A stretch of DNA of 64,000 nucleotides from a virus, in IMG/VR virus record IMGVR_UViG_3300045004_000088, positions 1-64,000 of that record; one strand, 5' to 3'. Made by a program: the position numbers and the translations under genes. Each line of letters opens with the position of its first letter. Position 1 is the first letter of the stretch. The notes below the pieces were generated by a model. The model worked only from the letters and a program-made list of their open reading frames with translations. It made no database searches and had not been told where the DNA came from. Positions 4,245 through 56,847 of the stretch are shown here, piece after piece.

Positions 4245-4892
4245 ATGGCAATTCTCAAGGGGTTCCCGCCGAGCAACTGCATCAGTCCGACGATCCACAT
4301 CACGGAGTACGATCTGAGTCAGATGGCGGGGTGTTACAACGTGACGGTTTCGGAGAAGGACTTGGAGCCGTACAAGGCCAAACCGCTGTCGAAAGCGGAT
4401 CAGCAGAAGAAGTACCTTCTGGGCAACGTCTGGCTCCAGAAGAAGGAGTACGGCAAGTGTTTCCGGCTTGAGATCGAAGCGATGTTGGATCGGTTCAAGC
4501 CGCTCGGCATGAGTCTGGGCGTGGGCGAGAACATGATGAAGGATCTGATGCGGGTGGCGTCGGACGCGCAGGAAGTGTTCTGCCGGGACAACATGTCTTT
4601 CCAGAAGGGTCCGACGTGGTTCCTGTGGATGGAGTACCACGTCATTCACGCCCTGAGTGGGTTCCTCCAGACGGATCTGCGGCCGGCGTGGGTGAAGACG
4701 TGGGAGGGGTATGCCGGCGACGGCGTGTCGTGGGTGAAGTGGCGGATGAGCGAGAAGCTGGACTACCCGACGCCGCTGGCGACCAGAATGAAGGAGGTCG
4801 ATCCAGAGAGGTGCAAGGTGCGGGAGACGAAGACGAAGCCCCGCAACGTGATTGCCACCAGAAAGCTGTCAACGTTGCAATACTGGTTCTAA
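4245..4892 (+). CDS. hypothetical protein (215 aa)
   Basis: ORF track; intrinsic terminator immediately downstream. Confidence 0.6.
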   Translation: MAILKGFPPSNCISPTIHITEYDLSQMAGCYNVTVSEKDLEPYKAKPLSKADQQKKYLLGNVWLQKKEYGKCFRLEIEAMLDRFKPLGMSLGVGENMMKDLMRVASDAQEVFCRDNMSFQKGPTWFLWMEYHVIHALSGFLQTDLRPAWVKTWEGYAGDGVSWVKWRMSEKLDYPTPLATRMKEVDPERCKVRETKTKPRNVIATRKLSTLQYWF

Positions 4893-4899
4893 ATCAAAC

Positions 4900-4932
4900 A
4901 AGCCCGGCCAGAAGCCGGGCTTGTTCGTTGTT
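4900..4932. terminator. rho-independent terminator hairpin AAGCCCGGC-cagaa-GCCGGGCTT followed by a T-rich tract, between convergent genes
   Basis: 9-bp GC stem plus GTTCGTTGTT read directly. Confidence 0.6.
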
Positions 4933-5212
4933 AGCGGTTGACGGTCGGACAGCGACCGTTGGGGCAGGTTGACGGCCAGTTGACGGTTTGCCAGACGGTT
5001 GTCGGCTGGAAGTGGACCGTTGTCGGCGCGGCGTAAACGACGGTCGGCGGGTTCGCGTGTACGGTCACGACGGTTTGGCACGAGGTGGGAGCGGGTTGAC
5101 AGGTTGAGACGGTCTGGCAGGTGTTGCACTTCCGTTTGCCGAAGGCTTGTGCGTCCTGTGCGAGCAGGAAGACGGCTGCGGCGACGGCGAGTGCGGTGAT
5201 GCACTTCTTCAT
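4931..5212 (-). CDS. small secreted Cys-rich protein (signal peptide MKKCITALAVAAAVFLLAQDAQA; CQTV/TVV repeats)
   Basis: In-frame ATG at 5212 with GGAG RBS 6 nt upstream; N-terminal hydrophobic signal-like segment; the track's N-terminal extension was rejected. Confidence 0.55.
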   Translation of the reverse strand: MKKCITALAVAAAVFLLAQDAQAFGKRKCNTCQTVSTCQPAPTSCQTVVTVHANPPTVVYAAPTTVHFQPTTVWQTVNWPSTCPNGRCPTVNR

Positions 5213-39500: not shown

Positions 39501-41377
39501 TGACCGAAGGTATGGTGATTCCGATCAAGACGCAGTTCCCGACCGTGGACGAAGTTCAGGACATGGGCGGAAGACTTGAAGGAATGACGCAGATCGTTGC
39601 CAAATTGCCGAAGTTCATGGAGGATCTGTACTCCAAGATTAAAGAAGGTTTGGCACTGTTAGATCAAAACAAGATCGAGGGCAACGAGGTAACACGATTT
39701 ACGATATGGTTCTATAACGTTGCCTCGATGTTGAACTTCGGTATTGTGATGCCGATCACGACCGGATTCCCGCCACAGAAAGAAGCGGACGACGCTATCG
39801 CCAAGCTCGACAAGATGACAGAGATCGTATCAAAGTTGCCGTCAATCGTTCAGAGCTTGAGCGAGGCGACGGCCGGCGCTCGCGAGATGATGAAGAGTTC
39901 GGGCATTTGGGGCGCGTACCGCGACATGGACATGTTCATGTGGGAAGCGGGCTTCATCATCCGTCGCGGCGTGATGGAGCCGATGCAGACATGGCCGAAA
40001 GACAGCGAGATGACCGACGCCGTTGCCCGCATCACCAAGATGGACGAAATGTTCAAGACGATGGCTCAGGCTATGGAAAGCATGGCCGCGTCAGCTAAAG
40101 CTATGGCTTCTGTTGATCTAAGTCAGTCTATGAACATGGGGAGTTTGGGCAACCCTGAAAATGGCAACTTAGCCGAGTTCGTGAGTGCGTTCGCGGAACA
40201 GAACGCCGAGTCGATGGGCATGAACGATACTAATTCTTTGGTTGATGTGATGGGTCAACAATCTCCACAAATCACATCGATGCAAAGTGCTTTGCGAATT
40301 GTCGAGAACTACACCCACGACATCAAGGATCTGTTCGAGCGGTCGTCCAGTGTCATCGGTGACATCCAGAAGACCAGCGAGTACATGTCGATGTTCGGTG
40401 ATTTGGACTTCTACGAGAACCAGATCTCCGAGAAGATCGCGCAGAGCAAGCAGTTCGTGCCGACCGTCCAGAGGATTGCAGAGAACATCGGTAAAGGCTT
40501 CGACTTTGCCGGCGGCAAGGCGTTGCTCGAAACCATCGCCGGACAGAAAGTCCGCATGGATGAAATGGCGGCGGGTCTGAAGGAAACAGAAGACTACACC
40601 AAGAAATTGGCGGAAATCTTCACGATGGCGAACAACGCCGTCAACATGATCAAGCAGACCACCAACAACCTGACGCAACTCAATGCCATCAAAGACGTTG
40701 AGAAAGAAATTACGGCCAAGATCGCGTCGGGCAACAGCTTCATGGTGTCGGTGTTGAAGACGGTCGAGGCGGTCGCCACCAACTTCGGAACCAACGAAGA
40801 GGTCAAGACGACTCTGATGGGTGTGCAGGCCAAGATCAAGGCGGCGGGCGACACGAATCAGGCGTTGACCGACTCTTTAAAGTTCATCGAGACGGTTAAA
40901 CAGTTGCAGAGCAACGTGTTGTCAATCGGCCAAATGGCCAAAGACAAGCCGCTTGGCGGTGGCGTGCCGGGTGCCGGCGCTCCTGTCAGCATCCCGGCCG
41001 CTAAGACCGGATTGAGTACGCCTGAGCCGGTACAGACCGCTTCGACAACGGGCGCGGCCAACTTGGACGTTGAGAAGACGATCATGAGAGATCAGGCGAC
41101 TTCTCAGCCGCCGGCCGGTGGCAACAAGAACGCGGTCGATTTCAGCAACTTGCAGAAGGCGATTGAAGAGAACAAGATGACCAACGACGAGATCCTCAGC
41201 GTGCTTCAGGCCATGTTGCGGCTGATGACGCCGCGTTCTGGAAGCAACACGGCACCGGGCGGGGACACGAATACATATTCGCGTCCCGACAAGCCGGCTG
41301 CTTACTACCGCGCACCCGTTGGCGACTTCAACAGTTCCGCAGGTAAGGGTGCCACCAACATGGTAAGGACCAGATAA
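33578..41377 (+). CDS. tail tape measure protein (2599 aa) with poly-Gly tract, helical N-terminal third, 7 tandem 84-aa tri-TM repeats and 3 tandem 90-aa repeats
   Basis: Size, position before the baseplate genes, GAGGA RBS; repeats read directly. Confidence 0.8.
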   Translation: MADPQLHVVVDAIGRNVNMNIDPNQWDELKSSITAGMKSVVGEVASVISQKTSSQCKSIEAALNEMSSSFAEEISGLKRVMNELGQKIDNIGKGTGTPTLGGDVSGSLGVIQTNTQAVLDYVKGEFKTAFAGQASDIRAMKDMASTPGKFFTHDQETHRLLGGLKAAIEACCPGSSVVDKTPSVAPSPTERAAPSAAPSGGGGGGGGGGGGGGPSPMDRARAFEAAMNAATTSNEGMNDSLTRGRRAYRQHREDMMATDDALEGFIGHVADLQEAFFVFSKDMSFLKDTFLGTFKSMFKEAVHEEVKFIKETRAAINETQGLTAETRGLQDAMTDIGKTAKTTGVGRSEFQASYLKALKSGIKDQKIAMAVTTAQLNTEKQLGLEAGELTEEFIKWNNQYNMSTMQIAEMGRGMRDIARYTGLTGKELANAVKQGDNFVEVLRNAAMLSASAAKNVMEIAANAQKMGVTKQIEPLIKAMASTNNLFREASSETRAFLFQAAAQVGRTGDLMKGTILKTKGGIKDMEKGMEMMLKKFGVQSVEAIDNLSDEAKMKLNLQLKAAYGLELGELQQSLKALKESSKTLADRLDDIRKKQQGNLTLEEKLALKEEERRLKTSKSFEMLTSLDEAAKGAKDMNAALSKFGERRKDFEGDLKAMGKSWGSNAGAARDAINEALKGVNESLKASGKSELSIDSSEIEKALKDPAAFRELSAKLTKAEQEAATAQKAALDPMSKIEQGVRELNDTMRNFTSSFLSSYMNLTGVLGVLAPLLGMMAAQQALSIARWRADKDFGVMGVLKKGLGKIFGYGGKKKGGAGDVAPGAAAGSGVDAGKGVEALAKDGLGGVSHVEDDTVAGLLRQLLHCLCSPKANGIENDEFKNIGKKNKANAAQIEQGAVAKAEKKAGGAAAKEKSKASAGGDDTKSILDKIEKLKGDGPRIAKAAGIIAALTIGIVLLGAVLIKLANMLFSKLKLDIKTVIETAAIIGVIMGAAGLIGTALYYAKPHLDKLADAEKDINAMVKNMWKGAKALAKLSGPLLVFAAELAIFGKIVLGALGLSPGRLLLIAGTWIALALGIAGIAEAIVRSGPMYAQLPVATKMMHTLHKELWAAVGAFGLVTLPLIAFAAIMALFGYVVIDKFGLTPGRMFAIAATWLILAVAVGAIGYALTASLPGWATMGAGLSAVWSIYPMLWSAVAAFALVSLPLIAFAGLLALFGYVVIDKFGLSPGRMFAIAATWLILAVAVGAIGYALAASLPGWVTMGAGLSVIWALMPVLLNAVAAFALVSLPIIAFAALLAGFGYIVIDQLGLTPGRMFQIAATWLILAVAVGAIGYALTASLPGWVTMGVGLGVIWSLLPLLFMAVAAFALVSLPIVAFAAILAAFGTIVIDELGLTPSRMFDIAATWLVLAIGIGAISYALIEATPGWSMLGIAYPFLLYAYGLMWLGVGAFALVSLPILALAEIIAEFGDTLDELGLTPERMKQIGETFVTLSETIGELCMSMLGATAKLAVLGVLSIFSVLMMSLAMLGVGAFAVLAIPILALGSAISNFGRTIIDDMGLTPERMQAIQDSFTSLTDTIRSLSWKMISATASLSLLGVLLIFSTLASTFIWMGALAFLVMMGPFQFLAYMLSKFAESVDIEGVKKAGEICEAIAKTISTIPPVIKSLTDELLPLMEPRWWGLVGPSKMEKALKVTTGFFSKNFAAILSFISYGIIDPIFGIGPGAAGVKLNPRDIQTAANVMKGLADMLPAIPPVIDALNGPIADLSKKSWFGYGSNKLEKTLNKLKDGFHSSFAAILNFISYGIIDPIFGIGAGAFGTKLNPRDVQTAGKIMKGLAEMLPAIPPVIDALNGPIADLSSKGWFSGKNKLQKTLAKLQQGFQQNFTAILSFISHGIIGPIFGAGQAEGEGIMLNPRYIQMAANVMKGLADMLPAIGTMIDTLGSGIQKILKSSKMRMKMDAIETFATWFANVARLLTEGMVIPIKTQFPTVDEVQDMGGRLEGMTQIVAKLPKFMEDLYSKIKEGLALLDQNKIEGNEVTRFTIWFYNVASMLNFGIVMPITTGFPPQKEADDAIAKLDKMTEIVSKLPSIVQSLSEATAGAREMMKSSGIWGAYRDMDMFMWEAGFIIRRGVMEPMQTWPKDSEMTDAVARITKMDEMFKTMAQAMESMAASAKAMASVDLSQSMNMGSLGNPENGNLAEFVSAFAEQNAESMGMNDTNSLVDVMGQQSPQITSMQSALRIVENYTHDIKDLFERSSSVIGDIQKTSEYMSMFGDLDFYENQISEKIAQSKQFVPTVQRIAENIGKGFDFAGGKALLETIAGQKVRMDEMAAGLKETEDYTKKLAEIFTMANNAVNMIKQTTNNLTQLNAIKDVEKEITAKIASGNSFMVSVLKTVEAVATNFGTNEEVKTTLMGVQAKIKAAGDTNQALTDSLKFIETVKQLQSNVLSIGQMAKDKPLGGGVPGAGAPVSIPAAKTGLSTPEPVQTASTTGAANLDVEKTIMRDQATSQPPAGGNKNAVDFSNLQKAIEENKMTNDEILSVLQAMLRLMTPRSGSNTAPGGDTNTYSRPDKPAAYYRAPVGDFNSSAGKGATNMVRTR
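34177..34220 (+). repeat. (GGN)13 simple-sequence tract encoding Gly13 within the tape measure gene
   Basis: Read directly. Confidence 0.8.
36757..38520 (+). repeat. 7 tandem copies of a 252-bp unit (84 aa, about 3 TM helices each) inside the tape measure gene; copies 2-4 nearly identical at DNA level
   Basis: Unit anchors at 36757, 37009, 37261, 37513, 37765, 38017 and 38269, all 252 bp apart. Confidence 0.8.
38708..39520 (+). repeat. 3 tandem roughly 270-bp units (SYGIIDPIFGIG...NPRDIQTA...MLPAIPPVIDALNGPIADL) in an AT-rich part of the tape measure gene
   Basis: Read directly at 38708, 38981 and 39251. Confidence 0.7.
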
Positions 41378-41928: not shown

Positions 41929-42249
41929 GTGGCCAACTTCTTTGAAGAAACGAACATAAACCCCAGAACTTACTTCACTGCCGCGAGTCGGTATTCCGAC
42001 TCGACCATCTGCTATTACACGGACATGAAACGCCTGTCACTTACGACGTACAAGCGTGGCGTTTCTGCCGTGACCCCCAACGACAAATTCATGGTAATCG
42101 GGAAGGGCCAAGAGTACCGTCCCGATCTGGTCAGTAGTCGCGTCTACGGTCTGCCCGATTTCTGGTGGCGGATCATGGAGGCTAACGGGATCTACGACAT
42201 TTACGACTTCAAGGCCGGCGTCAACATCCGAATCCCCTCAATGATCTAA
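41929..42249 (+). CDS. LysM-like tail protein (gpX-like; ...GLPDFWWRIMEANGIYD...IKAGVNIRIPS)
   Basis: C-terminal LysM-like pattern; GTG with GAGGTGA RBS (the track start is a GTG at 41923). Confidence 0.45.
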   Translation: MANFFEETNINPRTYFTAASRYSDSTICYYTDMKRLSLTTYKRGVSAVTPNDKFMVIGKGQEYRPDLVSSRVYGLPDFWWRIMEANGIYDIYDFKAGVNIRIPSMI

Positions 42250-42258
42250 GGAAAACGT

Positions 42259-43692
42259 ATGTCTTGTAACGCAATTTGTTTGCCAGAATATCAATGTGGT
42301 GATCTACAAAAAATAAAGCCCAACACTGGCGCGGTTTACGCACCATTTGTGACAATGACATTGGGTGGAACTATCACCGTTGGTAACAAATCATTCCCAG
42401 GAGAACCCAACACAGCCTGCATCAAATCTTTTGAATTTGGCGGCTCGACTGGTGCTGGCTGTACTGTAGAAATAATTGATGAATCTGGTGGTAGTTTTGT
42501 GAGATATTTCAATGCAGTTAACAAAAATTTATGTCAAGCCGCCGATGATCACAATATGGAAATTAACTTTGGATGGATCTCCAGATCGACAGATGGAAAT
42601 TTAACCAAAATCGGAATTCCTGAAGGGCCGATATTTTTCATACCCGGAAAAATAGAAAGCGTGTACGAAGGAGGTGTTATAAAATACACGTTGAATGGAA
42701 CCGATATGTTAACCCACATGGCAGAAAGTCGCGTGCAAGTACCTGTTGGAACAGAATCAAATAAAGTTAGATTGATGCCGGCGGTAAGAAAAATGGCGTC
42801 AAGAAATTGTCCACCACTCAATAACATCAGATATTTAAGACGAAATGGACCAAATCTAACTGAATGGAGATTCAAAAATAGTGATGGCGGGCCAGAGGGT
42901 CCAATGGGAGTTTGGCAGGGAGATCAACAAAATCCTATTTCGGCCATGAGAAAATTTTTCAATTCCTTGACGACAGACCGTAATAAAGGATTTTATGCTA
43001 TTTGGAACTCTGGGTCATCAGTTCCAGAACTTTGGTTCATGGAAGATTCGCGACCATATTGTGACGAAACGTCTAATGGATTTTTTTGTGCTGGAACTTA
43101 CATTGTAAACGGAGGAGATTGCAGCCCTGTAATTAGCTTTAACCCAAAAGCAGAATGGCAATATACTGCTGATCTTAATTCGGGTGGTAACTTGGGAGGT
43201 GCCACATCTGCTAAGAATATAGAACAACGACCGCCAATAGAACAAAGACGAAGCGGGAATTGTAAGGACATAACCACTACTCAACGTGGTGCTGGTACTA
43301 CAACACAATTCGCCGCACCACAAAACGACATCAATTGGCGGTCGCCAGATCAAATTACTCCAAAAATGCAAAAAGCTATGGCGGAACACGAAACGGCGGC
43401 ACACTACAAAGAGCTGCAAGCGCCTATGGAAGCCGAGTTAAAAATACATGGCGACACAAGCTTTGTCCATCAATCGCGATGGGCCGATGCTGTTGTTTCG
43501 ATAATCGTAATAAATCCATTTCAAATTTTTTCAGGTGGTTCATACCACGAATGGCTCGCCGGGCCAATGTGTAACCCAATTTTTTCAGACAAAGAATGGA
43601 TGATAAAAGGTGTTAACCATCAAATTTCTGATGGAGCTTATACTACGACCTTAAAAGTACAATGTATGAATGTAAACAAGACTGAACAATAA
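42259..43692 (+). CDS. tail/baseplate protein (477 aa, AT-rich gene; positional analog of Mu gp43 or P2 gpD)
   Basis: Position and size; sharply lower GC than neighbouring genes. Confidence 0.5.
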   Translation: MSCNAICLPEYQCGDLQKIKPNTGAVYAPFVTMTLGGTITVGNKSFPGEPNTACIKSFEFGGSTGAGCTVEIIDESGGSFVRYFNAVNKNLCQAADDHNMEINFGWISRSTDGNLTKIGIPEGPIFFIPGKIESVYEGGVIKYTLNGTDMLTHMAESRVQVPVGTESNKVRLMPAVRKMASRNCPPLNNIRYLRRNGPNLTEWRFKNSDGGPEGPMGVWQGDQQNPISAMRKFFNSLTTDRNKGFYAIWNSGSSVPELWFMEDSRPYCDETSNGFFCAGTYIVNGGDCSPVISFNPKAEWQYTADLNSGGNLGGATSAKNIEQRPPIEQRRSGNCKDITTTQRGAGTTTQFAAPQNDINWRSPDQITPKMQKAMAEHETAAHYKELQAPMEAELKIHGDTSFVHQSRWADAVVSIIVINPFQIFSGGSYHEWLAGPMCNPIFSDKEWMIKGVNHQISDGAYTTTLKVQCMNVNKTEQ

Positions 43693-45806
43693 TGACAAAT
43701 TTATCAGACCAAATACGACAACTAGAAACAGAACTAAAAAAAGTTAAAGCTGTTCTTTCTTCAAGTCAATACGAAATGGCTAAAGTCGCAACTACGACTT
43801 TGAACGACCGTACCCACATTGTTTCTCAATCAGAACAAATGTTTGGCATGTACACTGCCCTGTGTGTTGAAACCAAAGATGTTTGGAAACAGAACCGCAT
43901 CCGTTTTTATTGCCCCTTGTTCCAGTCTCCCGACAGCCCGATGAAAAGTCTGCCGTGGGCGTGGCCGATCTCGCCTATGGGCGGGTTTGATGATTCCGGC
44001 TGTTCGTGGGTGCCACCAGCCGGCTCGACCGTCTGTTTGATTTTCGAGGGCGGCGCGAGAAACGCACCTTTCTACATTGGCACAACGTGGCATCGTAACC
44101 GAGGACCAGAAGGGGCCAATGTATGGACCATTGACATCGCGGAGTACCAGAAGGTGTGGTCGGGTCACCGCAAGGGCTACCTGTGTGGACCCAACGACGA
44201 GAGCCAGTGTTTGCCGCCGTGGAACACCGAATCTTCAAACGGGTTCGACCTTAATAGCATCGTTGACTTCGATGCGAACCCGGAAGCCCAAAAGATGTTG
44301 ACCTACCCGCACATTTACGGGTTCAAGACGCCAGAAAAACACATGCTCAAAATGGTTGACGGCGATGCGTCGTGTGACCGCCGGTGGAAAAGACTTGAGA
44401 TACTCTCGTCTTGCGGCAACTGGCTGATCTTCAAAGACGATCACCTGCACTACGCCGGCCAATACGCACACCCGACCACGGGCGGCGTTGTCAAAACGGG
44501 TGACGTGACGTGCATCGAAGGTGCCGCACCCGGCATCGACATTACCAGGGCAATCGGCCTCGGCGATTTCTTGCCGGACTTAAACCCCGTTGACTCCGGG
44601 GCCGATTTCGGCAGTGCGGACGAAGGGTCAGTGGAAGACGACACGCCGAAAGAGGGAGCTAAAATTTCAAACCCCGCTTGCAGTGCAAAAATTGTTGGCG
44701 GTCATCCCGACACACCTTACTTCCCGTCGTGGAAACCGACCAAATATCAAAAACAACAGATAGGCGCGAACCCTTTTTTCAAACACGAAAACGAGTGCCG
44801 ACCGTATCGCGGGCCGGGCAACAACCGTAACAACACCGCCATGTTGCCCCAGAGCGGCATCCAGATGATGTCTATCAGCGGCCACACATGGGTCATGGAC
44901 GACTCGGTCGAAGAACCGACTGGCGATTGCGTGTGGGAACGATCACTACGACCGTTCGACTATGGGTGCAACAACATTTTCAACGGTTACATGGGACTGT
45001 TCAGCAGTTCGGGTCACAAATTCATCATGAGTGACATCGAGCAAGACGAGCCGAACAAAAGGGGCGAAGACAATTACATCCGTCTAGAGTCGCAGGCAGG
45101 CAACATCATCGAACTCAACGATATGGAGAAGGAGATCGGGATCGCCGGTTTCCGTCGCGGCATCAGCATGCGTTCGACCAGCAAACACTTGTTCATGATG
45201 ATCGATGAGGACAACGAGCAAGACTTGATCCCGCGAAGCGATGGTAACCAACCGGTCAACAAGGCGAAGAAAGCGTTCATCAAGATCCGGTCGGGTTACG
45301 GTATCGAGTTCAAGATCGAGGACACCAACTCGCAGGAGAATACGGTTGCCCAGTCCCTGCAAATGTTCTGTCCGCAGAAGGACAATACCGAGCGTGGCCC
45401 GCACATCATGAGGTTCCAAGAGGCTCCGAGTGGTCCGGGTCAAATCATGCTTCGTGCCGGCGGCGACTACATTACAATAAGTTACGACGATCACGTCGAG
45501 ATGGTGGGCGACAAGGAAAAGAATCCAAGTAACAAGATCGGCATCATTTCCAAGAACAAGGTCGTGTCAACGGAACAGGTTTACATCAACCTCGCCCGCA
45601 TGCACGTCTTCTTGGCTAAGGAACAGATCCTGTTGTTGGCCGGTCAGGATTGTCCGTCCGAGAACGGCGAGATGGCTCCGTGTCCGGCACAGATCCTCGT
45701 GTACCACGAGGGCAAGATCAAGATCAGTGACCGCGTCATCGGAAGCTGTTCCCCGAAGGCTCCGTGTGCGTCGATCTTCATGATGTCGCCGTTCGTTTCG
45801 TGCTAA
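43692..45806 (+). CDS. baseplate hub / central spike-like protein (704 aa)
   Basis: Position between the gpD-like and gp25-like genes; TAATG coupling. Confidence 0.45.
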   Translation: MTNLSDQIRQLETELKKVKAVLSSSQYEMAKVATTTLNDRTHIVSQSEQMFGMYTALCVETKDVWKQNRIRFYCPLFQSPDSPMKSLPWAWPISPMGGFDDSGCSWVPPAGSTVCLIFEGGARNAPFYIGTTWHRNRGPEGANVWTIDIAEYQKVWSGHRKGYLCGPNDESQCLPPWNTESSNGFDLNSIVDFDANPEAQKMLTYPHIYGFKTPEKHMLKMVDGDASCDRRWKRLEILSSCGNWLIFKDDHLHYAGQYAHPTTGGVVKTGDVTCIEGAAPGIDITRAIGLGDFLPDLNPVDSGADFGSADEGSVEDDTPKEGAKISNPACSAKIVGGHPDTPYFPSWKPTKYQKQQIGANPFFKHENECRPYRGPGNNRNNTAMLPQSGIQMMSISGHTWVMDDSVEEPTGDCVWERSLRPFDYGCNNIFNGYMGLFSSSGHKFIMSDIEQDEPNKRGEDNYIRLESQAGNIIELNDMEKEIGIAGFRRGISMRSTSKHLFMMIDEDNEQDLIPRSDGNQPVNKAKKAFIKIRSGYGIEFKIEDTNSQENTVAQSLQMFCPQKDNTERGPHIMRFQEAPSGPGQIMLRAGGDYITISYDDHVEMVGDKEKNPSNKIGIISKNKVVSTEQVYINLARMHVFLAKEQILLLAGQDCPSENGEMAPCPAQILVYHEGKIKISDRVIGSCSPKAPCASIFMMSPFVSC

Positions 45807-45820: not shown

Positions 45821-46252
45821 ATGCCGGCAATGAAGTTTTTGGGTGTTCCTTATCCCATTACACCGCACCCGCGAGGATACTTGAGATCGAGCGGGGGCAT
45901 CAGTCAGATCAAGTCCGATCTTTTGCAGTTGCTGCTCACCAACCCCGGCGAGAGGGTGATGCTGCCGACTTACGGCACGCCCCTCAAGAAGTTCATCTTC
46001 GAGCAGAACGACGCGATCTCGGCCGAGAGCGTGCGACAGGCGATCATCAATTCGATCAACCTGTGGGAGCCGAGAATAACGGTTCAAGAAATCACCGTTA
46101 AAAACAGTGCGGACGAAAGTCAATTAAACCCTCAAGATCCCAAAGAAGACTTGGAGAACGTGATGTCTATTACGATCAGGTTCTTCGATCCTGAGAACAT
46201 TCAAGAGGTCGATGCCGTGGTAATCGAACTACCAGTAGGTGGAGTACAATGA
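45821..46252 (+). CDS. baseplate wedge protein, gp25/GPW family
   Basis: Protein MPAMKFLGVPYPITPHP...SDLLQLLLTNPGERVMLPTYGTPLKKFIFEQND matches the conserved GPW/gp25 N-terminal pattern. Confidence 0.75.
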   Translation: MPAMKFLGVPYPITPHPRGYLRSSGGISQIKSDLLQLLLTNPGERVMLPTYGTPLKKFIFEQNDAISAESVRQAIINSINLWEPRITVQEITVKNSADESQLNPQDPKEDLENVMSITIRFFDPENIQEVDAVVIELPVGGVQ

Positions 46253-47814: not shown

Positions 47815-50800
47815 ATGGCAGAGAAAACAATCTATGAGGTGCCGAGTGTTACGGATACGGTGGTCATTCCTTTCTTGACCCCCGACGCCGACCAATGCTT
47901 GCTCCAGAACCCCTACATGGTCAACAACCTGACCATTTACTACATCGAACGCGACTTCTCAGGCGGCAACGTCACGCAATTTGACGTTGAAACCCGGAAC
48001 CAAGACGCGGAGCGGGCGGCGACCGAAGCACAGAACGCGGCGTGCCTTGACCCGACTCAGGAGAACATTCTTGAGGCGCGAAAACTACGCGCCCAGGCCG
48101 ACTCCATGAGGGTTTCGCGACCCGTGTATTACAACGACGCCGTCCCCGTTGCGGTGATCGGCAACTCGTCTTATCCCGCTTGGCTCTCGACCGACACACC
48201 CAACGCTCTCATCGAAAACGTACCGCTTGACGAGGAAGGTAACACCGTATACGGCCACTTCCAATACGTTTGGAACCCGGTGGGTATGCGAGAGGGCAAC
48301 TACATCGCGTGCTGGACGTGGACGCCCCTCGCGGCCGGGGAAACGCTTTCGCAAAACCTTTCCTTCTCGTTGATGGGCAACAACGCCATCACCACGAGCA
48401 TCCCGACCCACGCCACGCCGCCGGAAAAGTACCAAACTCTGCTGGACACATACCTCCCAGAGATGTACAAATCCACGCTCTCCGAAGACGACGTGACCCC
48501 GTCCGTTCTGACCAGATTCAACAAATCGGTCGGCCAGGGGTTCACGGTGTTGGAGAATCTCGCCAACCAGATCTTGGACATCATGGACGCCAACTCGACT
48601 GACGAGGCGTTCTTGGGCCTTCTGGGGCGGATGTTCGGGCTGAAGCTGAGGAGCGAAGACCCGACCCGTTGGCGGAAGCAGATCAAGTTGGCGGTGCCGC
48701 TTTACAAGATGAAGGGAACTCGCGCCGGGCTGGAGATGGCGTTCGATTTGGCCGGCATGAGGATGACGAGCTTGGTTCGCGGCTGGCAGATCATTTCGCC
48801 GTACACATGGGTGGAAACCTTCAAAGCGGCCGGCGGCGAAATGGAGTTCGTGCTGTCCCGTGTCGCACAACCAATTGATTCAGACAACTTTGAAGTGTCC
48901 GTCAGAAAGGCGGGCAACTCGTACTACACGGACTACCTGCCATCAGACGTGTCGATCAACACATCGGACGGCGTCAGCACACTAACGATTGAGAACAACA
49001 TCTCGCTCGAAAACGGCGACATCCTTCGAGTGCTGTACCAGTACGCGGCGATCCCGAACCCGACGCAACAGGACATCGAGGACTACATTCGTTTGTTGCC
49101 GTTGACCGATCAGCGGGACGAAACGGTTCAGGACTACCCGCCGAAAAACTGGAACGTTCGACTGCTCGAAGAGAACGACCCGTTGTTTTCGATCTTGATT
49201 CCCAACAAGCACCCGTACCACGACTTCTTGGTGTTCGGTAAGATCAGGACCGAGTTCCCGTACAGCGAAAACGTCTATAACATGGACGAATACAACGGCT
49301 CGATTAGGGACAGTCTCGAACCGTGCGACATGGACAAGGACTTCGTTGACCCGTGCAGCCAGTGCTTGGGCAGCAAGTACATCATCGACATTGAAGTTGA
49401 CCGCCTTTGCGACGACCGGGTGAACGAGGCCAAAGACATCCTGAAGGAGTTCGTCCCGTTTCACGCCCTGCCCCAGACCATCAACTTCAGCGGCTCGATG
49501 GAGGACTTCGTTCAGCCGCCCGTCGAGACGATTGAGTGCCTGATTTACTATCGCGGGAGCGAGACAGTAATCGCCGGCAGCGATCAAATGGTCTTCAACC
49601 GCGCGATGATTCCGAGCGGCATGCCGCTCGACCAAATTCTGAGAAACACCCTCGCTACGAGTACGCTCGTAGCGAGCGGAACCGCCACAGCCTACAACAG
49701 ACAGATCATGTTGTTCTCGCCGGACGTTCCGATCAGCAACACCGGCCTGAGTACCGACCCGACCGAAACGGTGCTAGAAATCTACGGCCCGCACCCGCAC
49801 GCCGGTAACTACCAAGTCACCAACGCGGTCGGACACGCGGTCGAAGTTTACGGCCCAATCTCGCCGACATCGCCATTGACGGAGCCGATCAATCAGTCGG
49901 CCTTCTCGTTCAGCCTGTCGAACATCATTTACGAAAACTCCGACACCTCCATTGTGACCGACAATTTCTACAAGTTGAAGGACGCGACTTGGGACTTGGC
50001 AGAACTGGGCGTCAAGAGCCAGTGGGACGTTGACAACGGGTACGCTACGACGGCCTGGACGATCAAGATGACGGCGTACAGTGCCACGCCGTACACGATC
50101 CAAGACATAAAGCCCGAAGGCGAGATCGTGATCGCTCAAGACCCTTCCCTGCCAAACGTGAACGCGACGGGTGTGGCCTATTCGATCATCCGCCCGGACG
50201 CGAGCGTGGCACACACAGGCACCTTGAATTTGTCGGTTGAGCTTCGCGGACTGGTAACTGTCACGGACGGGGTGCTGACCGACGTTCGCGGGGTAATGAT
50301 CCAGCCGCTCGCGGGGCAATACTTTTTGTACTACAACGATACCGGCGACCAGTACGTCGTCAGTGAATTGGTGGACGGCGAGACACACCAGTTTTACATC
50401 AACGGCTGGTCGGGCGGTTCGGTGGGCGGAAAGAGTATCGCTTTGTATGATCGGCTGATCGATACGCGGTACGGCTTACTTACTTATCAGGGTATCGGCC
50501 TGAACACGGTGATCAACTACGAATCGTCGTTGGGCATCTCGAACGGCCAAAACCCGGTACTGGTTCCGCTGGAAGACAGCAAGTTCAAAGAGAACTTCAT
50601 CGTCGTGATCAATGACCCAGTCAACGGGGCGGATGAAGAGACTTTTGCGATTGCCGACATCGACGGGACTACGATCACCCTGGACGGTGACATTCACTAC
50701 TGGACGACTTTGGGTAACGGGGGGACGAGCGTGCCGTTCGAGATTTACAACTACGAAACTCTTCCGGTGACTGTGGCGGGCGTGCCGTTCCAGCGGCTCG

Positions 50801-50970
50801 ACCGGCGGAACTCGGAAGTGATCACCTCCGTCACGGAGACGATGTCGCCGATGGCGATGAGCATGGCAGCCGCCCCAGAGCCGGGGTTCTCTGACTTTGT
50901 GAAACAAGAAGAGAAAATCAACTTCCGCATTGATTACGCGGACGGAACAGTCGAAGAGGGGAGCCTATGA
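47815..50970 (+). CDS. large baseplate wedge / tail fiber protein (1051 aa)
   Basis: Position in the baseplate operon; size. Confidence 0.5.
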   Translation: MAEKTIYEVPSVTDTVVIPFLTPDADQCLLQNPYMVNNLTIYYIERDFSGGNVTQFDVETRNQDAERAATEAQNAACLDPTQENILEARKLRAQADSMRVSRPVYYNDAVPVAVIGNSSYPAWLSTDTPNALIENVPLDEEGNTVYGHFQYVWNPVGMREGNYIACWTWTPLAAGETLSQNLSFSLMGNNAITTSIPTHATPPEKYQTLLDTYLPEMYKSTLSEDDVTPSVLTRFNKSVGQGFTVLENLANQILDIMDANSTDEAFLGLLGRMFGLKLRSEDPTRWRKQIKLAVPLYKMKGTRAGLEMAFDLAGMRMTSLVRGWQIISPYTWVETFKAAGGEMEFVLSRVAQPIDSDNFEVSVRKAGNSYYTDYLPSDVSINTSDGVSTLTIENNISLENGDILRVLYQYAAIPNPTQQDIEDYIRLLPLTDQRDETVQDYPPKNWNVRLLEENDPLFSILIPNKHPYHDFLVFGKIRTEFPYSENVYNMDEYNGSIRDSLEPCDMDKDFVDPCSQCLGSKYIIDIEVDRLCDDRVNEAKDILKEFVPFHALPQTINFSGSMEDFVQPPVETIECLIYYRGSETVIAGSDQMVFNRAMIPSGMPLDQILRNTLATSTLVASGTATAYNRQIMLFSPDVPISNTGLSTDPTETVLEIYGPHPHAGNYQVTNAVGHAVEVYGPISPTSPLTEPINQSAFSFSLSNIIYENSDTSIVTDNFYKLKDATWDLAELGVKSQWDVDNGYATTAWTIKMTAYSATPYTIQDIKPEGEIVIAQDPSLPNVNATGVAYSIIRPDASVAHTGTLNLSVELRGLVTVTDGVLTDVRGVMIQPLAGQYFLYYNDTGDQYVVSELVDGETHQFYINGWSGGSVGGKSIALYDRLIDTRYGLLTYQGIGLNTVINYESSLGISNGQNPVLVPLEDSKFKENFIVVINDPVNGADEETFAIADIDGTTITLDGDIHYWTTLGNGGTSVPFEIYNYETLPVTVAGVPFQRLDRRNSEVITSVTETMSPMAMSMAAAPEPGFSDFVKQEEKINFRIDYADGTVEEGSL

Positions 50971-51443
50971 AAACCGAAGACCAAGTGCAATGTATCGGTT
51001 GGGTCGAAGCCGTCATCGAATACAAAGACGGCCGCAAAGACACTTTGCGGTTCAACAACAGCGTCATGAGGCGGGGACGGGCGGCTCTGGCCGCAGCCCT
51101 GAGCAACTCCCTTAGTGACGGGTTCAATTTCTACGTCAGCCGAATGATTTTCGGCGACGGCGGCACGTCCGGGGGCGTTCCGAAGTTCGTTGACACGAAC
51201 AGGAACGGCCTTTACGGTTTGACGCGGGCGAGTAAGCCCGTCGTGGCGAGCGTGGACCCGACGACCCCTAGCAAAGCCGTGTTTACCAGCGTGTTGACGT
51301 TTAACGACGCCAACGGGTACGCCCTGAACGAAATGGCGTTGGTAATGAACAGCGGCGACTTGTACAGTCTGGCGACGTTCCCAGACCTCAACAAGACTGA
51401 CGCCATGCAGATCACATGGTCTTGGTCGGTTAATTTTGTCTAA
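50967..51443 (+). CDS. small tail-associated protein (158 aa)
   Basis: ATGA coupling. Confidence 0.45.
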   Translation: MKTEDQVQCIGWVEAVIEYKDGRKDTLRFNNSVMRRGRAALAAALSNSLSDGFNFYVSRMIFGDGGTSGGVPKFVDTNRNGLYGLTRASKPVVASVDPTTPSKAVFTSVLTFNDANGYALNEMALVMNSGDLYSLATFPDLNKTDAMQITWSWSVNFV

Positions 51444-51473: not shown

Positions 51474-52493
51474 ATGAAGAATTTATACCCGCAATTGACT
51501 ACCCGTCAGCATGAGATATTCATAGGAAGTATGCTTGGCGATGGCTGTCTTAGCCGTCAACCTGTTAACTGGAATTGGCTGATTCAGCAGAGCTTTGCCG
51601 ATCATAAAAACTTTCCAAAAGAAAGCTACATGCAGTTTTTTTTAGATGAGCTAGGAGGCTGGTCCAGATGTGCAAAAATTGTTATGAAGTCTCATCGAGC
51701 CAAAATTATCGACGGCAAGATCGGTCGAGTGCAGTGTGAACCATATCCGACTTGGAGATATGAGTCTTGCAATCATCTGATTTGGACGGAAATGGGCAAG
51801 AAGTGGTATGCCCCTCAGTTGGTGAACGGCAGAATCAGGAAGGTCATTCCTAACGATCTCAAACTGACTCCGCTATCGATGGCGATATGGTACATGGATG
51901 ACGGGGTCAATCAAGCTAGAGACGCCCAAGCCAAACTATGCACCAATGGTTTTACCGAAGAAGAGGTTGTTTTCCTGGCGGAAGTAATGAAACGTGACTT
52001 GTCGATCAAGGCTGTCAAGTCGAGAGTCAAAAAAGACCGCAGTCAGTTTTTACTTCGTGTCAACCGTGAAGCGTATTTTGAATTCATTGACATTATAAGG
52101 CCAGAGATCAAGTGGGACTGCTTCGGTTACAAAACGGACACCTCCGGGTACGTCAAGAAAGACAACAAGGGAGCCAACCACGGAAAGTCTAAATTAAACG
52201 ACGAGAAATCGCAGGAGATTTTTCGGTTGAGGCAGATAGGTCGTTCTCGTAAAGAAGTCGCGGCCATATTTGGTGTGACCGAAGCGTGTGTGACACGCAT
52301 CGCTTCTGGGCAAGGATGGAAACATCTGGGAAACCCGATGGTGCGACAACACAAAAAAATGACCGCAGAAGACAGAACGCAAGCATTAAGGCTTCTGGCA
52401 GAAGGTAAGGATCAAGAAGAGGTCGCAAGCATTATCGGCACATCACAGTCGAGCATCAGTAGATTGTTAAACAAAAAAACGTTCGCAAAATAG
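51474..52493 (+). mobile_element. LAGLIDADG homing endonuclease with C-terminal HTH domain, AT-rich, inserted in the tail module
   Basis: Motifs IGSMLGDGCL and MAIWYMDDG read directly; C-terminal sigma-70 region-4-like HTH; GC drop. Confidence 0.65.
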
Positions 52494-52504: not shown

Positions 52505-52702
52505 ATGACATGCAAGAAAGAGAATGAAAATAATTTGCCGGTCAACGCGGATGTCATATACATCCCCAGTGTGATCGGGCAAATAAACAAAATTACATTC
52601 CCCAGTATCATTGTCTGTGAAGTAAACGTGCCTAGTGTGATCGTAATGGACGAGCTTGACATCCCAAGTATCATTACGGTCGATTGGGCTACAGGAGCAT
52701 AA
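52505..52702 (+). pseudogene. 65-aa AT-rich ORF made of (I/V)PS(V/I)I repeats resembling the repeat region of the 61184-63376 fiber-like protein; possible gene fragment
   Basis: Read directly; adjacent to the homing endonuclease gene. Confidence 0.3.
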
Positions 52703-53103
52703 TGAACGATTGGTTGAAGCGCAGCTATGCAAAGCAGAAAAGGCAAGCCGACAGACGTACTCTCGAAGGTATCGATGAGATCGTCAACAAATGGAAAAAA
52801 GCCGAAGACAAAAAAGAGTGGGGCGACAAGCTCGCGGTGATTTTGACGATCATGGCTCGCAACGTTATTGAGTTTGCGAAGCCGGACCTTCCTCTGGAAG
52901 AAAAGATCGCAAATCATCGCGAAATAATGAAAAGAGCGGCTAGTTCGCTCCCCTGCATAGACACGACCAGACACCGGGCTTTCACTTACCTGATGACCAA
53001 AATGTTGTGCGTGTTGCGTCAGAACACGATGACGAGAGAAGAACTACTGGAAGCACACAAGGAGTATCGTGAGTACCTTGCAAGTAAGCACCCTAGAGCT
53101 TGA
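52702..53103 (+). CDS. hypothetical protein (133 aa)
   Basis: ATG in TAATG overlap. Confidence 0.5.
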   Translation: MNDWLKRSYAKQKRQADRRTLEGIDEIVNKWKKAEDKKEWGDKLAVILTIMARNVIEFAKPDLPLEEKIANHREIMKRAASSLPCIDTTRHRAFTYLMTKMLCVLRQNTMTREELLEAHKEYREYLASKHPRA

Positions 53104-53347
53104 AGAAAACGGCAAACCGAAGCGGTATCTGGTCTTCGACAACGAAGCCTTCGACTACGAACTGAGTGAATCGGACCTCTCCCGCGCGATCATGTACTGT
53201 GGCGACGACCCACAGGCCAAGAAGACGCTGCACGGCGAGATCCAAAAGCACTTCCTCGACTGTCTCGAAGAGTTCCTCGGTTTCCCCGTGACACTGAGTG
53301 AGCTTGTGGCTGCGATCCGCGAAGGCAAACTGGAGAAGAAGCAATGA
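53069..53347 (+). CDS. hypothetical protein (92 aa; GTG or TTG start inside the upstream gene)
   Basis: ORF track; start uncertain. Confidence 0.4.
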   Translation: MSTLQVSTLELEENGKPKRYLVFDNEAFDYELSESDLSRAIMYCGDDPQAKKTLHGEIQKHFLDCLEEFLGFPVTLSELVAAIREGKLEKKQ

Positions 53348-53856
53348 ATTTCGTAGAAGAAACCGATCTGCGGTTCGCGTTGATGCCATCGACAATTGAG
53401 AACGCCGGCATGGGGTGTTTCGCCGCCGTGGATCTGAAGAAGGGCGACTACATCGAGGTGATCGGCGTCTACGTCAAGAAAGGCGGCATCGCCGACAAGT
53501 GTACCGCCTACGCGACCAGATACAAGTTCAACGGTCACGACAACCAAGAGGCCAACATCGTGCCGATGGGCTACGGCGGGATGATAAATCACACCCCGGA
53601 CACCGCGAAACAGAATGTCAAACTCGAATTCGCTCGCGGGCTGGCACGGAGAAGCAACGACGCGGGACAAGTGATTTACAGGTTCACGAGGGACATCCCG
53701 GCCGGCGAAGAACTTCTTGGGTACTACGGGGATCACAAGGAGGCAGAGCTTCAGTGGATGAACAAAGGGGCGAGCTACCACGACCGCGAGGGCGGGGCGT
53801 GGAAAGAGTTCATCGAACTCGATTATTACAACCTCGGTCTGCTCGCCAAAATCTGA
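53344..53856 (+). CDS. SET-domain protein (putative protein lysine methyltransferase)
   Basis: GMGCFAAVDLKKGDYI, MINHTPDTAKQNV (NHxxxPN-like) and GEELLGYYGD (ELxxxYG) match SET signatures. Confidence 0.6.
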   Translation: MNFVEETDLRFALMPSTIENAGMGCFAAVDLKKGDYIEVIGVYVKKGGIADKCTAYATRYKFNGHDNQEANIVPMGYGGMINHTPDTAKQNVKLEFARGLARRSNDAGQVIYRFTRDIPAGEELLGYYGDHKEAELQWMNKGASYHDREGGAWKEFIELDYYNLGLLAKI

Positions 53857-53893: not shown

Positions 53894-54670
53894 GTGCCAC
53901 AGATTGACCTGATTCCAGTACCGCAGTATCAAGCTCTCCAGCCGTACCACGTCGATTTCGACAACCTGCCGCTGAAGGCGTTGATCACGCGGATGCAGTT
54001 GATCAACAGTGCCGTTGACATCAACTCCGACATTCTCCGACAAGCGGTCGGAAGTCAGGGTACGGTCAGCGCACGCCTCGGCCAGAGCTTGAACGACGAC
54101 GGCAGCTTGAGGGTTTCGGCGGTTGACGGCACGCTCCACAACATCGGCGCTCACGCCGATGGGACTTACGAATCCGTGGCATACGTCCGCATGAAGCTGG
54201 ATGAGCGTGAGAAATTGGCGTTGATCGCTGACGGGGCGACCAACATGACGCTAGAATTCAACACGCCGTCCGTCATTACCAGTTTTGACACCGGGCCGGT
54301 GGAATTCATCCCGTCTGACGGGGTGACGTGGAACACGGTCGCGCCGAACAAGGTTCAGGCCAACCTGACGTTCCCGATCTCTTCGGCACACAAACATTAC
54401 TACGGGATCACCCCGCAGTACGACGGAACGCCCGACTTCCAGCACTATAAGATCGGCTACCCGAACTACATCGCAGGCAGTCTGCGTGTGGCGATCAACG
54501 GTGTCAGGATTTTTGACGACGGCGATGTGTACGTCCCAGGCTCTACGGTGTCCGAAGCGTGGACACTTCAGGGGTTCACCGGGGACGAAACGACCGGCAA
54601 GTTTGTACTCATGACGCCGCTGACTCTGGACGATGTGATCCGGGTCGATTTCGACGTTGCCCTCACCTGA
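53894..54670 (+). CDS. hypothetical protein (258 aa)
   Basis: ORF track. Confidence 0.5.
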   Translation: MPQIDLIPVPQYQALQPYHVDFDNLPLKALITRMQLINSAVDINSDILRQAVGSQGTVSARLGQSLNDDGSLRVSAVDGTLHNIGAHADGTYESVAYVRMKLDEREKLALIADGATNMTLEFNTPSVITSFDTGPVEFIPSDGVTWNTVAPNKVQANLTFPISSAHKHYYGITPQYDGTPDFQHYKIGYPNYIAGSLRVAINGVRIFDDGDVYVPGSTVSEAWTLQGFTGDETTGKFVLMTPLTLDDVIRVDFDVALT

Positions 54671-54683
54671 TGCGAGCTAGTGG

Positions 54684-55232
54684 ATGAAAAAAGACACGTC
54701 ACCTGTAGTCGTCAACAAAATGGCTTACAGGCCGGTGCCTATGGACCTCGGATTCATTGTCCTGTGTTTTGACGCCGACCCGTACAAGCCCCTCACTACC
54801 CTGAGCAGCATAGATCGCGCGTACCCTGGAGCCAAAACCGAAATGGTTTCCCCTCCAGATTTCAAGCACATTCACAAGTCAGCAATTACGGGGAAGGGTT
54901 CACTGACCTCGCTGATCAACGCCGGTATGTCGAAGCCGCCGGCCGAATGGAACGTAATAGTGATGGCAGGGGTTCGAGTTAAAGAACAACTCGACAAAAA
55001 GTATTCGCCCTTCATGGAAAGCCGTCTGGACATCTTCTTCCCGCTCATCTTTGGTTTCCACAACTTCCTCGACGCTCCGATGAACGGCCTGACCATTCAC
55101 CGGGACACCTTCAAAGAGGTCGGCAAATTCGCCGACGACAACCCGCTCGAAATCTGCAAGATGATGTGGTTCTTGGAAGCCCACGGCAAGAACTGCAAGT
55201 TCAAAGCCGTCGCCGGTTGTCGGATGTGTTGA
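54684..55232 (+). CDS. hypothetical protein (182 aa)
   Basis: ORF track. Confidence 0.5.
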   Translation: MKKDTSPVVVNKMAYRPVPMDLGFIVLCFDADPYKPLTTLSSIDRAYPGAKTEMVSPPDFKHIHKSAITGKGSLTSLINAGMSKPPAEWNVIVMAGVRVKEQLDKKYSPFMESRLDIFFPLIFGFHNFLDAPMNGLTIHRDTFKEVGKFADDNPLEICKMMWFLEAHGKNCKFKAVAGCRMC

Positions 55233-55245: not shown

Positions 55246-55704
55246 ATGCTCACGTTCACCCAGTGGGTCGAAACGACCCGTGTCACGATCTATACCAGCC
55301 CCCAGTCGAAAGGCGCTATGGTGGACGACACGTTCGCCGACGAGCCTGTTCAAATGCTGGACATCGACAGCATCATAAACTACGAGCGGGCCTCCAAAAT
55401 GGACCTCCCGGCCAGCCGGGAAAACATGCAGAAGATCCTTGCTGGCATCAAGGCCGGCGAGAAGATGCCGCCGGTTTACGTCCGCGAAGTGAAACTGAAG
55501 GGGAAGTCAAATCCGAGGTGGGACGGGAACAAAATGCTGTCGGTCGGAGGGGTTCCGAACTCGCGTTTCAAATATCAGATCATTGACGGGCATCACAGGT
55601 ACTGGGCGTACAAAAAGGCGGGCGTCAAAACAATACCCGCCATCGTCGTCTCGCCAGAAGACATCCAGAAGAAGAGGCTCTGGACGCCCGAAGACGAATA
55701 CTAG
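55246..55704 (+). CDS. ParB-like nuclease domain protein (YQIIDGHHRYWAYKKAGVKTIPAIVV)
   Basis: DGHHR motif read directly. Confidence 0.7.
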   Translation: MLTFTQWVETTRVTIYTSPQSKGAMVDDTFADEPVQMLDIDSIINYERASKMDLPASRENMQKILAGIKAGEKMPPVYVREVKLKGKSNPRWDGNKMLSVGGVPNSRFKYQIIDGHHRYWAYKKAGVKTIPAIVVSPEDIQKKRLWTPEDEY

Positions 55705-56321
55705 GACGCCATCCACGGCGTGTAGGCGATTTGCGCCCCGTCCCGCGTAATGCAGGGGCCGGAAGAGAACGCCAGGAAACCGCCATTCCAAGTGTACCAT
55801 TCGAGCTTGTCGCCCGGCTGCACCACCGACATGAACTTGACCATTCTCTCTTCTTGCTTGAGTTGATCGACCGTCAGCGGGTTCTCACGGGGGCGTCCGC
55901 AAGTGCGTTGGCCGCTGTTGAGGTTGTCGGCCAAGATCTTCCAGAAGTCCTCGACTTTGTCACTGAGGAACTCGATGATGTTCTCGGCCTTGCCGCCGTT
56001 GTACTCGGTGTAGAAGTATTGGAACCGCCCCGTGGCGATGTTGTCTTCTTTCTTCTTCCGAGCAGCCGCCTCGATCTTTTCCATTGCTTGTTGTTGTTCT
56101 TCGAGCAAGACCGGAATTTGATCTTCGGTGATCTGGACCGCTTTCCAGTGTTTCGTTTCGTGCGTGTAGTAGGAGCCGACCGCCATATTGTCGAACTGGC
56201 GGTGGTTGACGGTACACGTTTTCTTGTTGGAAACGTTCATCACCTCGGCCGCAACCTTCGGCGTCCCTTCGTTGACGATGCCGAGATACTGCCACACGCC
56301 GAAGTAGGGTTTGTCTGACAC
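55701..56321 (-). CDS. hypothetical protein (206 aa)
   Basis: ORF track; ATG. Confidence 0.5.
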   Translation of the reverse strand: MSDKPYFGVWQYLGIVNEGTPKVAAEVMNVSNKKTCTVNHRQFDNMAVGSYYTHETKHWKAVQITEDQIPVLLEEQQQAMEKIEAAARKKKEDNIATGRFQYFYTEYNGGKAENIIEFLSDKVEDFWKILADNLNSGQRTCGRPRENPLTVDQLKQEERMVKFMSVVQPGDKLEWYTWNGGFLAFSSGPCITRDGAQIAYTPWMAS

Positions 56322-56328
56322 TGCTGCC

Positions 56329-56847
56329 TCAGAGTAAGTTGCAGATGAAGTCCCAACGGTAGTTGTACTTCATCTCGCCGTTATGAACTTTGTCGAGGTA
56401 CTGGTAGAGTTCGTCCCAACTCCCGAACATCTGATCGTCGGGGATGAACCCAAAGTACCACAGAGGATTATACTCTTTGCCTTGCGGACAGACGAGCAGC
56501 ACGGGGTTTTTGAGTAGATTGGCGAGGAAGATCTCGTGGTGGCTGCCCGTGGTCGGAACCCCGAACGGCAGGTAGGCGATGACGAGGTCAGACCGCTGGA
56601 CCACTTGAAGGTCTTTGCGAACGAACTTACGCGCGATCTTCGCCATCGTCGCGTAGTCTTTTTCGGTACGGGCCTTCTTCAAGTCGTCGGCCCACTGTTG
56701 TTTGGGGTCGGCGTGAGGGTCGAAGACGTTCATCCCGTAGCGTTCGGTGAGCGTTTTGATGACTTCGGGACGCCAGTTTGCTTTGGCGGAACACTGTTCG
56801 ATTGGACCACTCAAATATGCCAGTTGACCGTTAAGGAAATTAGACAT
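56329..56847 (-). CDS. nucleoside 2-deoxyribosyltransferase / DNPH1-like protein
   Basis: AYLSGPI ... DLVIAYLPFGVPTTGSHHEIFLA ... VLLVCP parallels NDT motifs (YFGAGWF ... GLGMELGYA ... VLLVIP); AAGGTGA RBS. Confidence 0.5.
   Translation of the reverse strand: MSNFLNGQLAYLSGPIEQCSAKANWRPEVIKTLTERYGMNVFDPHADPKQQWADDLKKARTEKDYATMAKIARKFVRKDLQVVQRSDLVIAYLPFGVPTTGSHHEIFLANLLKNPVLLVCPQGKEYNPLWYFGFIPDDQMFGSWDELYQYLDKVHNGEMKYNYRWDFICNLL

Follow-up and report, generated by a model that had tools for sequence, protein, structure and literature searches.

A candidate two-component SET-domain lysine methyltransferase encoded by a huge contractile-tailed phage

In eukaryotes, the methylation of protein lysines by SET enzymes has a central place in chromatin biology. 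The SET family described here comes from phages, whose hosts have no histones. A SET-domain gene in a 64,000-nucleotide stretch of viral DNA (the window, by which we mean the whole of the stretch analysed) raises the question of whether its product is an active methyltransferase and, if so, with what partner and on what target it would act. The gene, its motifs and the gene that directly precedes it are the following.

53069-53347, + strand: partner gene for an acidic protein of 92 aa; it begins with GTG, preceded by an AAGGAG ribosome-binding site, and its stop codon overlaps the SET start
53344-53347, + strand: ATGA stop/start overlap from the partner gene to the SET gene, read from the sequence and indicating translational coupling
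53344-53856, + strand: SET-domain protein gene, putative SAM-dependent protein lysine methyltransferase; ATG-to-TGA open reading frame, 170 aa
53407-53415, + strand: GxG motif (G22-M-G24) of the SAM-binding loop, aligned with GYG of PBCV-1 vSET
53587-53592, + strand: NH motif (N82-H83, followed by T84), SAM binding and pseudoknot, aligned with NH(S) of vSET and PFL0690c
53707-53733, + strand: E122-E-L-L-G-Y-Y128-G-D130, the ELxxxYG motif with the catalytic tyrosine, aligned with GEEITISYGD of vSET and EELLYDYGD of SET8
53734-53853, + strand: family-specific C-terminal extension, residues 131-170, predicted to be helical, cysteine-free

The SET gene has a GGAG ribosome-binding site 9 nt 5' of its start, and its product matches the Pfam profile PF00856 (E=3.6e-7) over profile positions 1-105 of 105. 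With 31.0 bits (gathering score 22.4) and the profile covered in full, the match is well beyond chance. The original prediction had read from the letters a SET domain with three signatures in order, had proposed a PF00856 search as a check and had named missing SAM-binding residues as grounds for rejecting it. The three strings are present in the translation (GMGCFAAVDLKKGDYI at residues 22-37, MINHTPDTAKQNV at 80-92 and GEELLGYYGD at 121-130), the profile search gave a SET match above its cut-off, and both the SAM-binding and the catalytic motifs are intact; this part of the prediction is thus confirmed. A longer open reading frame on the opposite strand (53155-53781, 208 aa) overlaps the SET gene and was rejected as a shadow ORF, because it is the + strand product for which 19 of the 20 same-length homologues listed carry PF00856 and whose 170-aa family is encoded by 63 viral loci. 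The GC3 of the SET gene (0.754) equals that of the genome backbone (about 0.77), and the gene is consequently a long-term resident. No PHROGs family was found for either the SET protein or the partner protein. A single-sequence search of the PDB with the SET protein returned only a weak match, to the C-terminal motif of SET8; it took a profile of the family to find solved SET structures by sequence.

Conservation was counted in 51 distinct relatives from phage loci, with 34-100% identity. In the SAM-binding loop, G22 is kept in 48 of these and G24 in all 51; N82 is kept in 50 and H83 in 49; in the catalytic motif, E123 is kept in all 51, G126 and Y128 in 50 each and G129 in 49. As judged from this alignment, G22, G24, N82, H83, E123 and Y128 are shown to be under purifying selection. 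Since the key residues are near-invariant across 51 sequences down to 34% identity, the pattern is that of an active enzyme and not of a pseudoenzyme. The invariant glycine of the family, G126, aligns with the first tyrosine of the SET8 motif EELLYDYGD, which we take to be the Phe/Tyr switch residue Y334. A glycine in place of this tyrosine makes it plausible, as a soft suggestion from the alignment, that the active site is roomy and could support multiple methylation.

The fold prediction also places the protein among the SET enzymes. The AlphaFold2 model, for which 21 family members were used, has a mean pLDDT of 70.6; most of the core lies at 77-94, residues 131-150 fall below 50 and the extension has values of 43-55. 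Foldseek found 340 matches to the model in the PDB at E<=1e-3, and all 50 of those listed are SET lysine methyltransferases, including NSD3, MLL1/3/4, SETD8, SET7/9 and EZH2 (probability 1.00, query-normalised TM 0.46-0.57). The SET domains of MLL1, MLL3 and MLL4 are among the top fold matches. The Cys-rich Zn-binding post-SET region of SUV39/SET2/EZ/TRX-type SETs is absent, there being no cysteine in residues 131-170; vSET, SET7/9 and SET8 likewise lack a Zn post-SET region. One family member from the representative-protein search, the 193-aa P0031, carries a CxxC...CxxC insertion (CLKCQGSSCSLCGG) between the NH and catalytic motifs, which may be a Zn-ribbon insert.

Among solved structures, the best sequence relative is PFL0690c of Plasmodium falciparum (PDB 4rz0), a putative minimal SET protein that the family profile matches at 4.8e-5 over residues 12-131 and that Foldseek aligns with TM 0.52 (query-normalised) and 0.75 (target-normalised); it differs in being eukaryotic and in having neither partner nor extension. 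The 119-aa vSET of PBCV-1 (A612L; PDB 1n3j), matched by the profile at E=4.4e-4, is like the phage SET a minimal viral core without pre-SET or Zn post-SET, and in both relatives the GxG, NH and EExxxxYGD motifs are in register with the phage family. However, vSET belongs to a eukaryote-infecting virus, has histone H3K27 as its target and lacks the 40-residue C-terminal extension; we know of no partner gene coupled to it. It acts as a homodimer, according to the title of Manzur et al. 2003 as cited in PMC10117894.

The closest cellular relatives are the minimal SET proteins of GTDB loci L072-L090 (32-46% identity over residues ~4-133, E 1e-24 to 2e-16), most of them 121-139 aa long and with the same core motifs as the phage protein. 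The genomes that encode them belong to the Planctomycetota (Gemmataceae, Limnoglobus, Kuenenia), the Chloroflexota and other groups, and neither the partner gene (0/18) nor the C-terminal extension (0/18) was found at these bacterial loci. Chlamydial cpnSET/NUE, Burkholderia BtSET, Bacillus anthracis BaSET and Methanosarcina Go1-SET are, as here, prokaryote-encoded SET lysine methyltransferases. Those prokaryotic enzymes for which targets are known are mostly secreted effectors acting on eukaryotic histones, or act on archaeal MC1-alpha (PMC10117894; for NUE, PMC2904774); they differ from the phage SET in being stand-alone, and none was recovered as its close sequence relative. SET proteins of phages have also been annotated, in uncultured Caudovirales (UniProt A0A6J5L8Y2, A0A6J5P3I3 and others) and as ORF62 of Stenotrophomonas phage vB_SmaM_Ps15; these are automatic annotations, and the proteins share ~18-22% identity with the present one in structural alignment. 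With these, the SET proteins annotated in many giant viruses and the minimal SETs of Planctomycetota and Chloroflexota, the earlier statement that such enzymes are rare in bacteria and viruses is overstated. Within the literature library searched, we found no characterised SET enzyme of a bacteria-infecting virus, no functional work on any phage SET and no account of a conserved partner.

It is this invariant coupled partner gene, absent from the original prediction, that is the most informative feature of the locus. Pairing was assessed in 72 sequences, namely the window and 71 loci that include 63 IMG/VR contigs. A partner HMM matches 71 of the 72, and in 66 the gene (~90 aa) lies directly upstream of the SET gene on the same strand, the 4-nt ATGA overlap being the commonest spacing (34 loci). 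In 4 further loci a single gene is wedged between the two, with the packing still tight; at L059 the partner is present and the SET gene runs off the contig end, and L070 encodes a shorter SET without a partner. Partner homologues adjoin the SET gene on its 5' side even in relatives whose wider neighbourhoods differ, and the partner is the sole invariant neighbour of the SET gene. Contigs of 623 kb and 590 kb also carry partner homologues.

The median pI of the partner protein, 4.8, is acidic. Its residues F28 and D29, part of an FD[W/Y] motif, are invariant, and G71 and G86 are nearly so. Its best lysine columns hold K in ~45% of sequences and no column exceeds ~50%; 35 of 50 sequences have a K at one or the other of a pair of neighbouring columns. 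No match to the protein was found in Pfam, NCBIfam, PADLOC or PDB sequences, and the partner module appears to be undescribed so far. The two proteins also occur as fusions in both orders, partner-SET in P0038 (partner HMM 4e-17) and SET-partner in P0045 (1.7e-10), each seen on a single metagenomic contig (of 842 nt and 12.7 kb), so that either could be an assembly or sequencing error.

Some loci carry additional genes at or beside the pair. An extra gene of 167-207 aa lies exactly between partner and SET at L009 (3377-4000), L014 (3474-4004) and L017 (3501-4004); searches with these inserted genes gave nothing above threshold, the L009 protein having a sub-threshold match to glycosyltransferase family 25 (GT25) at E=0.051 and the others none. 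On the contig of the P0038 fusion (L092), a dual-specificity protein phosphatase (DSPc, 4552-5004) is encoded immediately 5' of the fusion with a 4-nt overlap, and is a second eukaryote-like protein-modifying enzyme beside SET.

The genes around the pair indicate in what kind of genome it resides.

43692-45806, upstream context: baseplate hub or spike protein (Phage_base_V)
45821-46252, upstream context: gp25/W baseplate protein, followed by a 520-aa protein
47815-50970, + strand: P2 gpI-like baseplate protein, 1051 aa (Tail_P2_I, 22.1 bits, cut-off 20.6)
47815-51443, + strand: upstream context formed by the gpI-like protein and a 158-aa tail-collar-like protein
52702-53103, + strand: 133-aa protein, possible small gp55-like late sigma factor, overlapping the start of the partner gene
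53894-55232, + strand: conserved 258-aa and 182-aa proteins, downstream context

Matches to Phage_tail_fib (21.1 bits, below the cut-off of 23) and to phrog_48 ('tail protein') were also obtained for the upstream genes, and PKD-domain proteins are encoded further downstream. An identical SET protein is found on a contig of 475,914 bp, and relatives occur on contigs of 586,525, 281,290, 435,946 and 343,421 bp and in GenBank entry LR756511 ('uncultured phage', 595,163 bp); overall, the ~170-aa SET proteins form a compact family on phage contigs of up to ~620 kb. The baseplate and tail genes around the SET gene, together with the large contigs that carry its relatives, point to a huge phage with a contractile tail. 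The term 'phage-like element' used previously was right as to the phage context and understated the nature of the genome. No tRNA genes were found within the 64,000-nt window, nor any signal that would point to the host.

For the analysis of synteny, the genes of all loci were clustered and counted in ~50 dereplicated lineages. The gpI-like and 158-aa tail-collar-like families precede the pair in 37-38 of these, and the 258-aa and 182-aa families follow it in 33 and 30. The common order (37-38 of ~50 lineages) is gpI-like, 158-aa tail-collar-like, partner, SET, 258/277-aa protein and 182-aa protein, continued by a nucleoside-deoxyribosyltransferase-like gene on the opposite strand, a 243-aa protein and the PKD proteins. 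The pair is thus embedded in a baseplate/tail-fibre module in about three quarters of the lineages, and not in an accessory cluster as had been proposed. In ~10 lineages it lies among genes of replication and nucleotide metabolism (PolA, OTCase-like, DEAD helicase), which weakens the inference of a tail-protein target.

Both neighbours named for the supposed accessory cluster are real: a ParB_N domain is encoded at 55246-55704 (28.0 bits, cut-off 26.3), and the deoxyribosyltransferase-like gene at 56329-56847 on the - strand is borderline, at 30.0 bits against a cut-off of 30.0. The ParB_N gene is missing from L003, the closest large relative (586 kb). The ParB_N-domain protein (152 aa, + strand) and a 206-aa protein (- strand) together occupy 55246-56321, and as both are absent at the equivalent site of L003 they constitute a two-gene indel in an otherwise syntenic tail region. 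The nucleoside 2-deoxyribosyltransferase-like gene is conserved within the tail module in ~30 of 50 lineages, an odd site for an enzyme of nucleotide metabolism.

In the clade of the window, two genes are inserted between the tail-collar gene and the pair. The first, between the tail-collar-like gene and the SET cassette, encodes a LAGLIDADG homing endonuclease with C-terminal HTH domains (51474-52493, + strand; Pfam 4.7e-21); its low GC3 (0.515, backbone 0.77) and its absence at the same place in L003 point to a recent mobile insertion in the tail operon. The second is the 133-aa sigma-like gene, with a GC3 of 0.58 that is also below the backbone. Its homologues are found directly 5' of the pair only in the window, L003 (9347-9745), L006/L007 (L006 9425-9820), L008 (9428-9802) and L011/L012 (L011 3422-3817). 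Proteins of this family are 125-139 aa long and share an ...AFNYFTT.....LRQ... motif; one of four members matches phrog_234 ('late sigma transcription factor') at 1.7e-4 and one matches Sigma70_r2 at 0.15, while the window's own copy gave no significant match to the late sigma or sigma-70 region 2 profiles. The family may represent a very small gp55-like sigma factor. A three-gene cassette of sigma-like, partner and SET genes was considered as a general feature and rejected, since iterated HMM searches still found the sigma-like gene linked to the pair in no more than 6 distinct sequences.

Several other genes of the window deserve mention. The 258-aa protein that follows the SET gene (53894-54670, + strand) has a weak match to a 1,3-1,4-beta-glucanase (3i4i, E=1.8e-4, residues 123-244) and a sub-threshold match to CBM65. 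Fibre tips often resemble the beta-glucanase jelly-roll, and the protein may contain a lectin- or glucanase-like receptor-binding or fibre domain. Just 5' of the baseplate genes, a single 2599-aa open reading frame (33578-41377, + strand) without significant Pfam domain may, from its position, encode a giant tape-measure or internal protein. A low-GC patch at 42001-44000 (0.434, window 0.558) covers a 477-aa open reading frame (42259-43692) just before the baseplate hub gene, for which no Pfam or PHROG match was found. A 516-aa protein (23801-25351, - strand) matches the PHROG for tRNA nucleotidyltransferase at 5.5e-20.

Apart from the partner gene, the feature that sets the phage family apart from other minimal SETs is the C-terminal extension. 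Each of its residues F156, L157, L161, Y162 and L164 is conserved in 44-48 of the 51 relatives. Extension and partner occur together in 70 phage loci and are jointly missing from the 18 bacterial loci and L070, with no discordant case, a 70/19/0 distribution that possibly reflects one ancestral event and hence does not amount to 89 independent observations. In a mirror-tree test the extension was not singled out, the partial correlation with the partner being 0.17 for the extension and 0.22 for the core. A segment that is conserved and yet modelled with low pLDDT in the monomer is consistent with an element for docking or closing that gains its order when the partner binds.

The SET fold, the intact catalytic residues, the invariant coupled pairing, the fusions in two orders and the co-occurrence of partner and extension are all observed. 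A SET protein that is always encoded with a small acidic protein, usually among tail genes, is probably one half of a two-part protein-modifying unit. On balance we consider it somewhat probable that this huge contractile-tailed phage makes an active lysine methyltransferase, SAM-dependent and minimal like vSET, and that it works as a two-component enzyme with the ~90-aa acidic partner. The partner would bind the SET enzyme, with the conserved and amphipathic C-terminal extension as the likeliest docking site and as a replacement for the post-SET region, and would serve as an activating or target-selecting subunit and not as a substrate. The SET domains of the MLL/SET1 family and of EZH2 need non-catalytic partner subunits to adopt an active conformation. 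The dependence suggested here would be analogous in principle, the likeness to MLL/SET1-family enzymes (WDR5-RbBP5-Ash2L) and EZH2 (EED, SUZ12) being one of function only: their partners are unrelated to the phage partner in sequence and size, and for the phage enzyme we infer the dependence. Judging from position only, the pair would be expressed late, together with the baseplate and tail-fibre genes, and the methylated lysines would be those of a tail or virion protein, or of a host protein late in infection.

The same data can be read in other ways. The original prediction named a host nucleoid-associated protein or a virion protein as candidate targets. In line with the first of these, the SET protein could act as a stand-alone enzyme whose target for takeover of the cell would be a nucleoid-associated protein, or some other abundant protein, of the host, the upstream gene being unrelated. 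Such targets have precedents, a chlamydial SET methylating histone-like proteins and a Methanosarcina SET methylating MC1-alpha (PMC10117894), and the ~10 lineages in which the gene lies among replication genes would be in keeping with them. However, a partner that is invariant, translationally coupled and occasionally fused argues against an unrelated gene, and in most lineages the pair belongs to the tail module; we therefore regard this reading as unlikely. Only its claim that the enzyme acts alone is at odds with the data, and the two-component explanation itself leaves room for a host target. Tight coupling and fusion would equally be expected of an enzyme with a dedicated substrate, and the lysine present at one or the other of two adjacent partner columns allows speculation that the cassette yields a small acidic protein in methylated form, which might be part of the virion or have a regulatory role. 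Against this, none of the lysine columns approaches the conservation of the invariant F28 and D29, known SET substrates are usually basic whereas the partner has a pI of ~4.8, and the co-occurrence of the partner with the extension of the enzyme is left unexplained. A partner that is the substrate thus seems quite improbable.

Two further readings are weaker still. A small acidic protein encoded upstream with a 4-nt overlap is the classic layout of a type II toxin-antitoxin system, and the partner might neutralise SET until a trigger arrives, either by mimicking a substrate or DNA or by inhibiting the enzyme stoichiometrically. Unlike mobile loci, the pair shows fixed synteny in structural operons across deep divergence; among the hallmarks of type II systems it has the overlap and neither a mobile, patchy distribution nor a match to a known toxin-antitoxin or defence model, the PADLOC search having given none. 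The partner is found in none of the 18 bacterial loci with a related SET, and a toxin fused to its own antitoxin would be unusual, all of which makes an inhibitor pair very unlikely. A catalytically dead SET serving as scaffold or chaperone for tail-fibre assembly would suit the position of the pair directly 3' of the gpI-like and tail-collar-like genes. In P2, H and G are encoded after I, so that P2-like fibre assembly proteins occupy this place. Yet SAM-binding and catalytic residues that are almost invariant over such a range of divergence are not expected of a pseudoenzyme, and we give a scaffold hardly any credence. As to what the two-component methyltransferase would modify, one specific proposal is that the pair is a virion-modifying system in which methylated surface lysines of the baseplate and tail fibre are masked from Bil conjugation or from proteases. 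Bil (bacterial ubiquitin-like) conjugation is reported to target the central tail fibre of a phage and to block assembly (PMC10557695). The proposal is drawn from gene position only, and we look upon it as quite improbable.

The catalytic domain itself is known; what is new here is its two-gene architecture and its biological setting. A 170-aa enzyme and a 90-aa partner, kept as a unit across many lineages of huge phages, make a clean system that is open to experiment. The identity of the substrate would reveal the role of lysine methylation in infection, be it virion protection, tail assembly or host takeover. Masking of virion lysines, if true, would provide the first case of a phage virion whose lysines are methylated by an enzyme, and would add a new class of counter-defence. 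The partner may exemplify a novel mode in which a very small protein activates or targets a SET domain, and such a mode would bear on the evolution of SET enzymes before their recruitment to chromatin.
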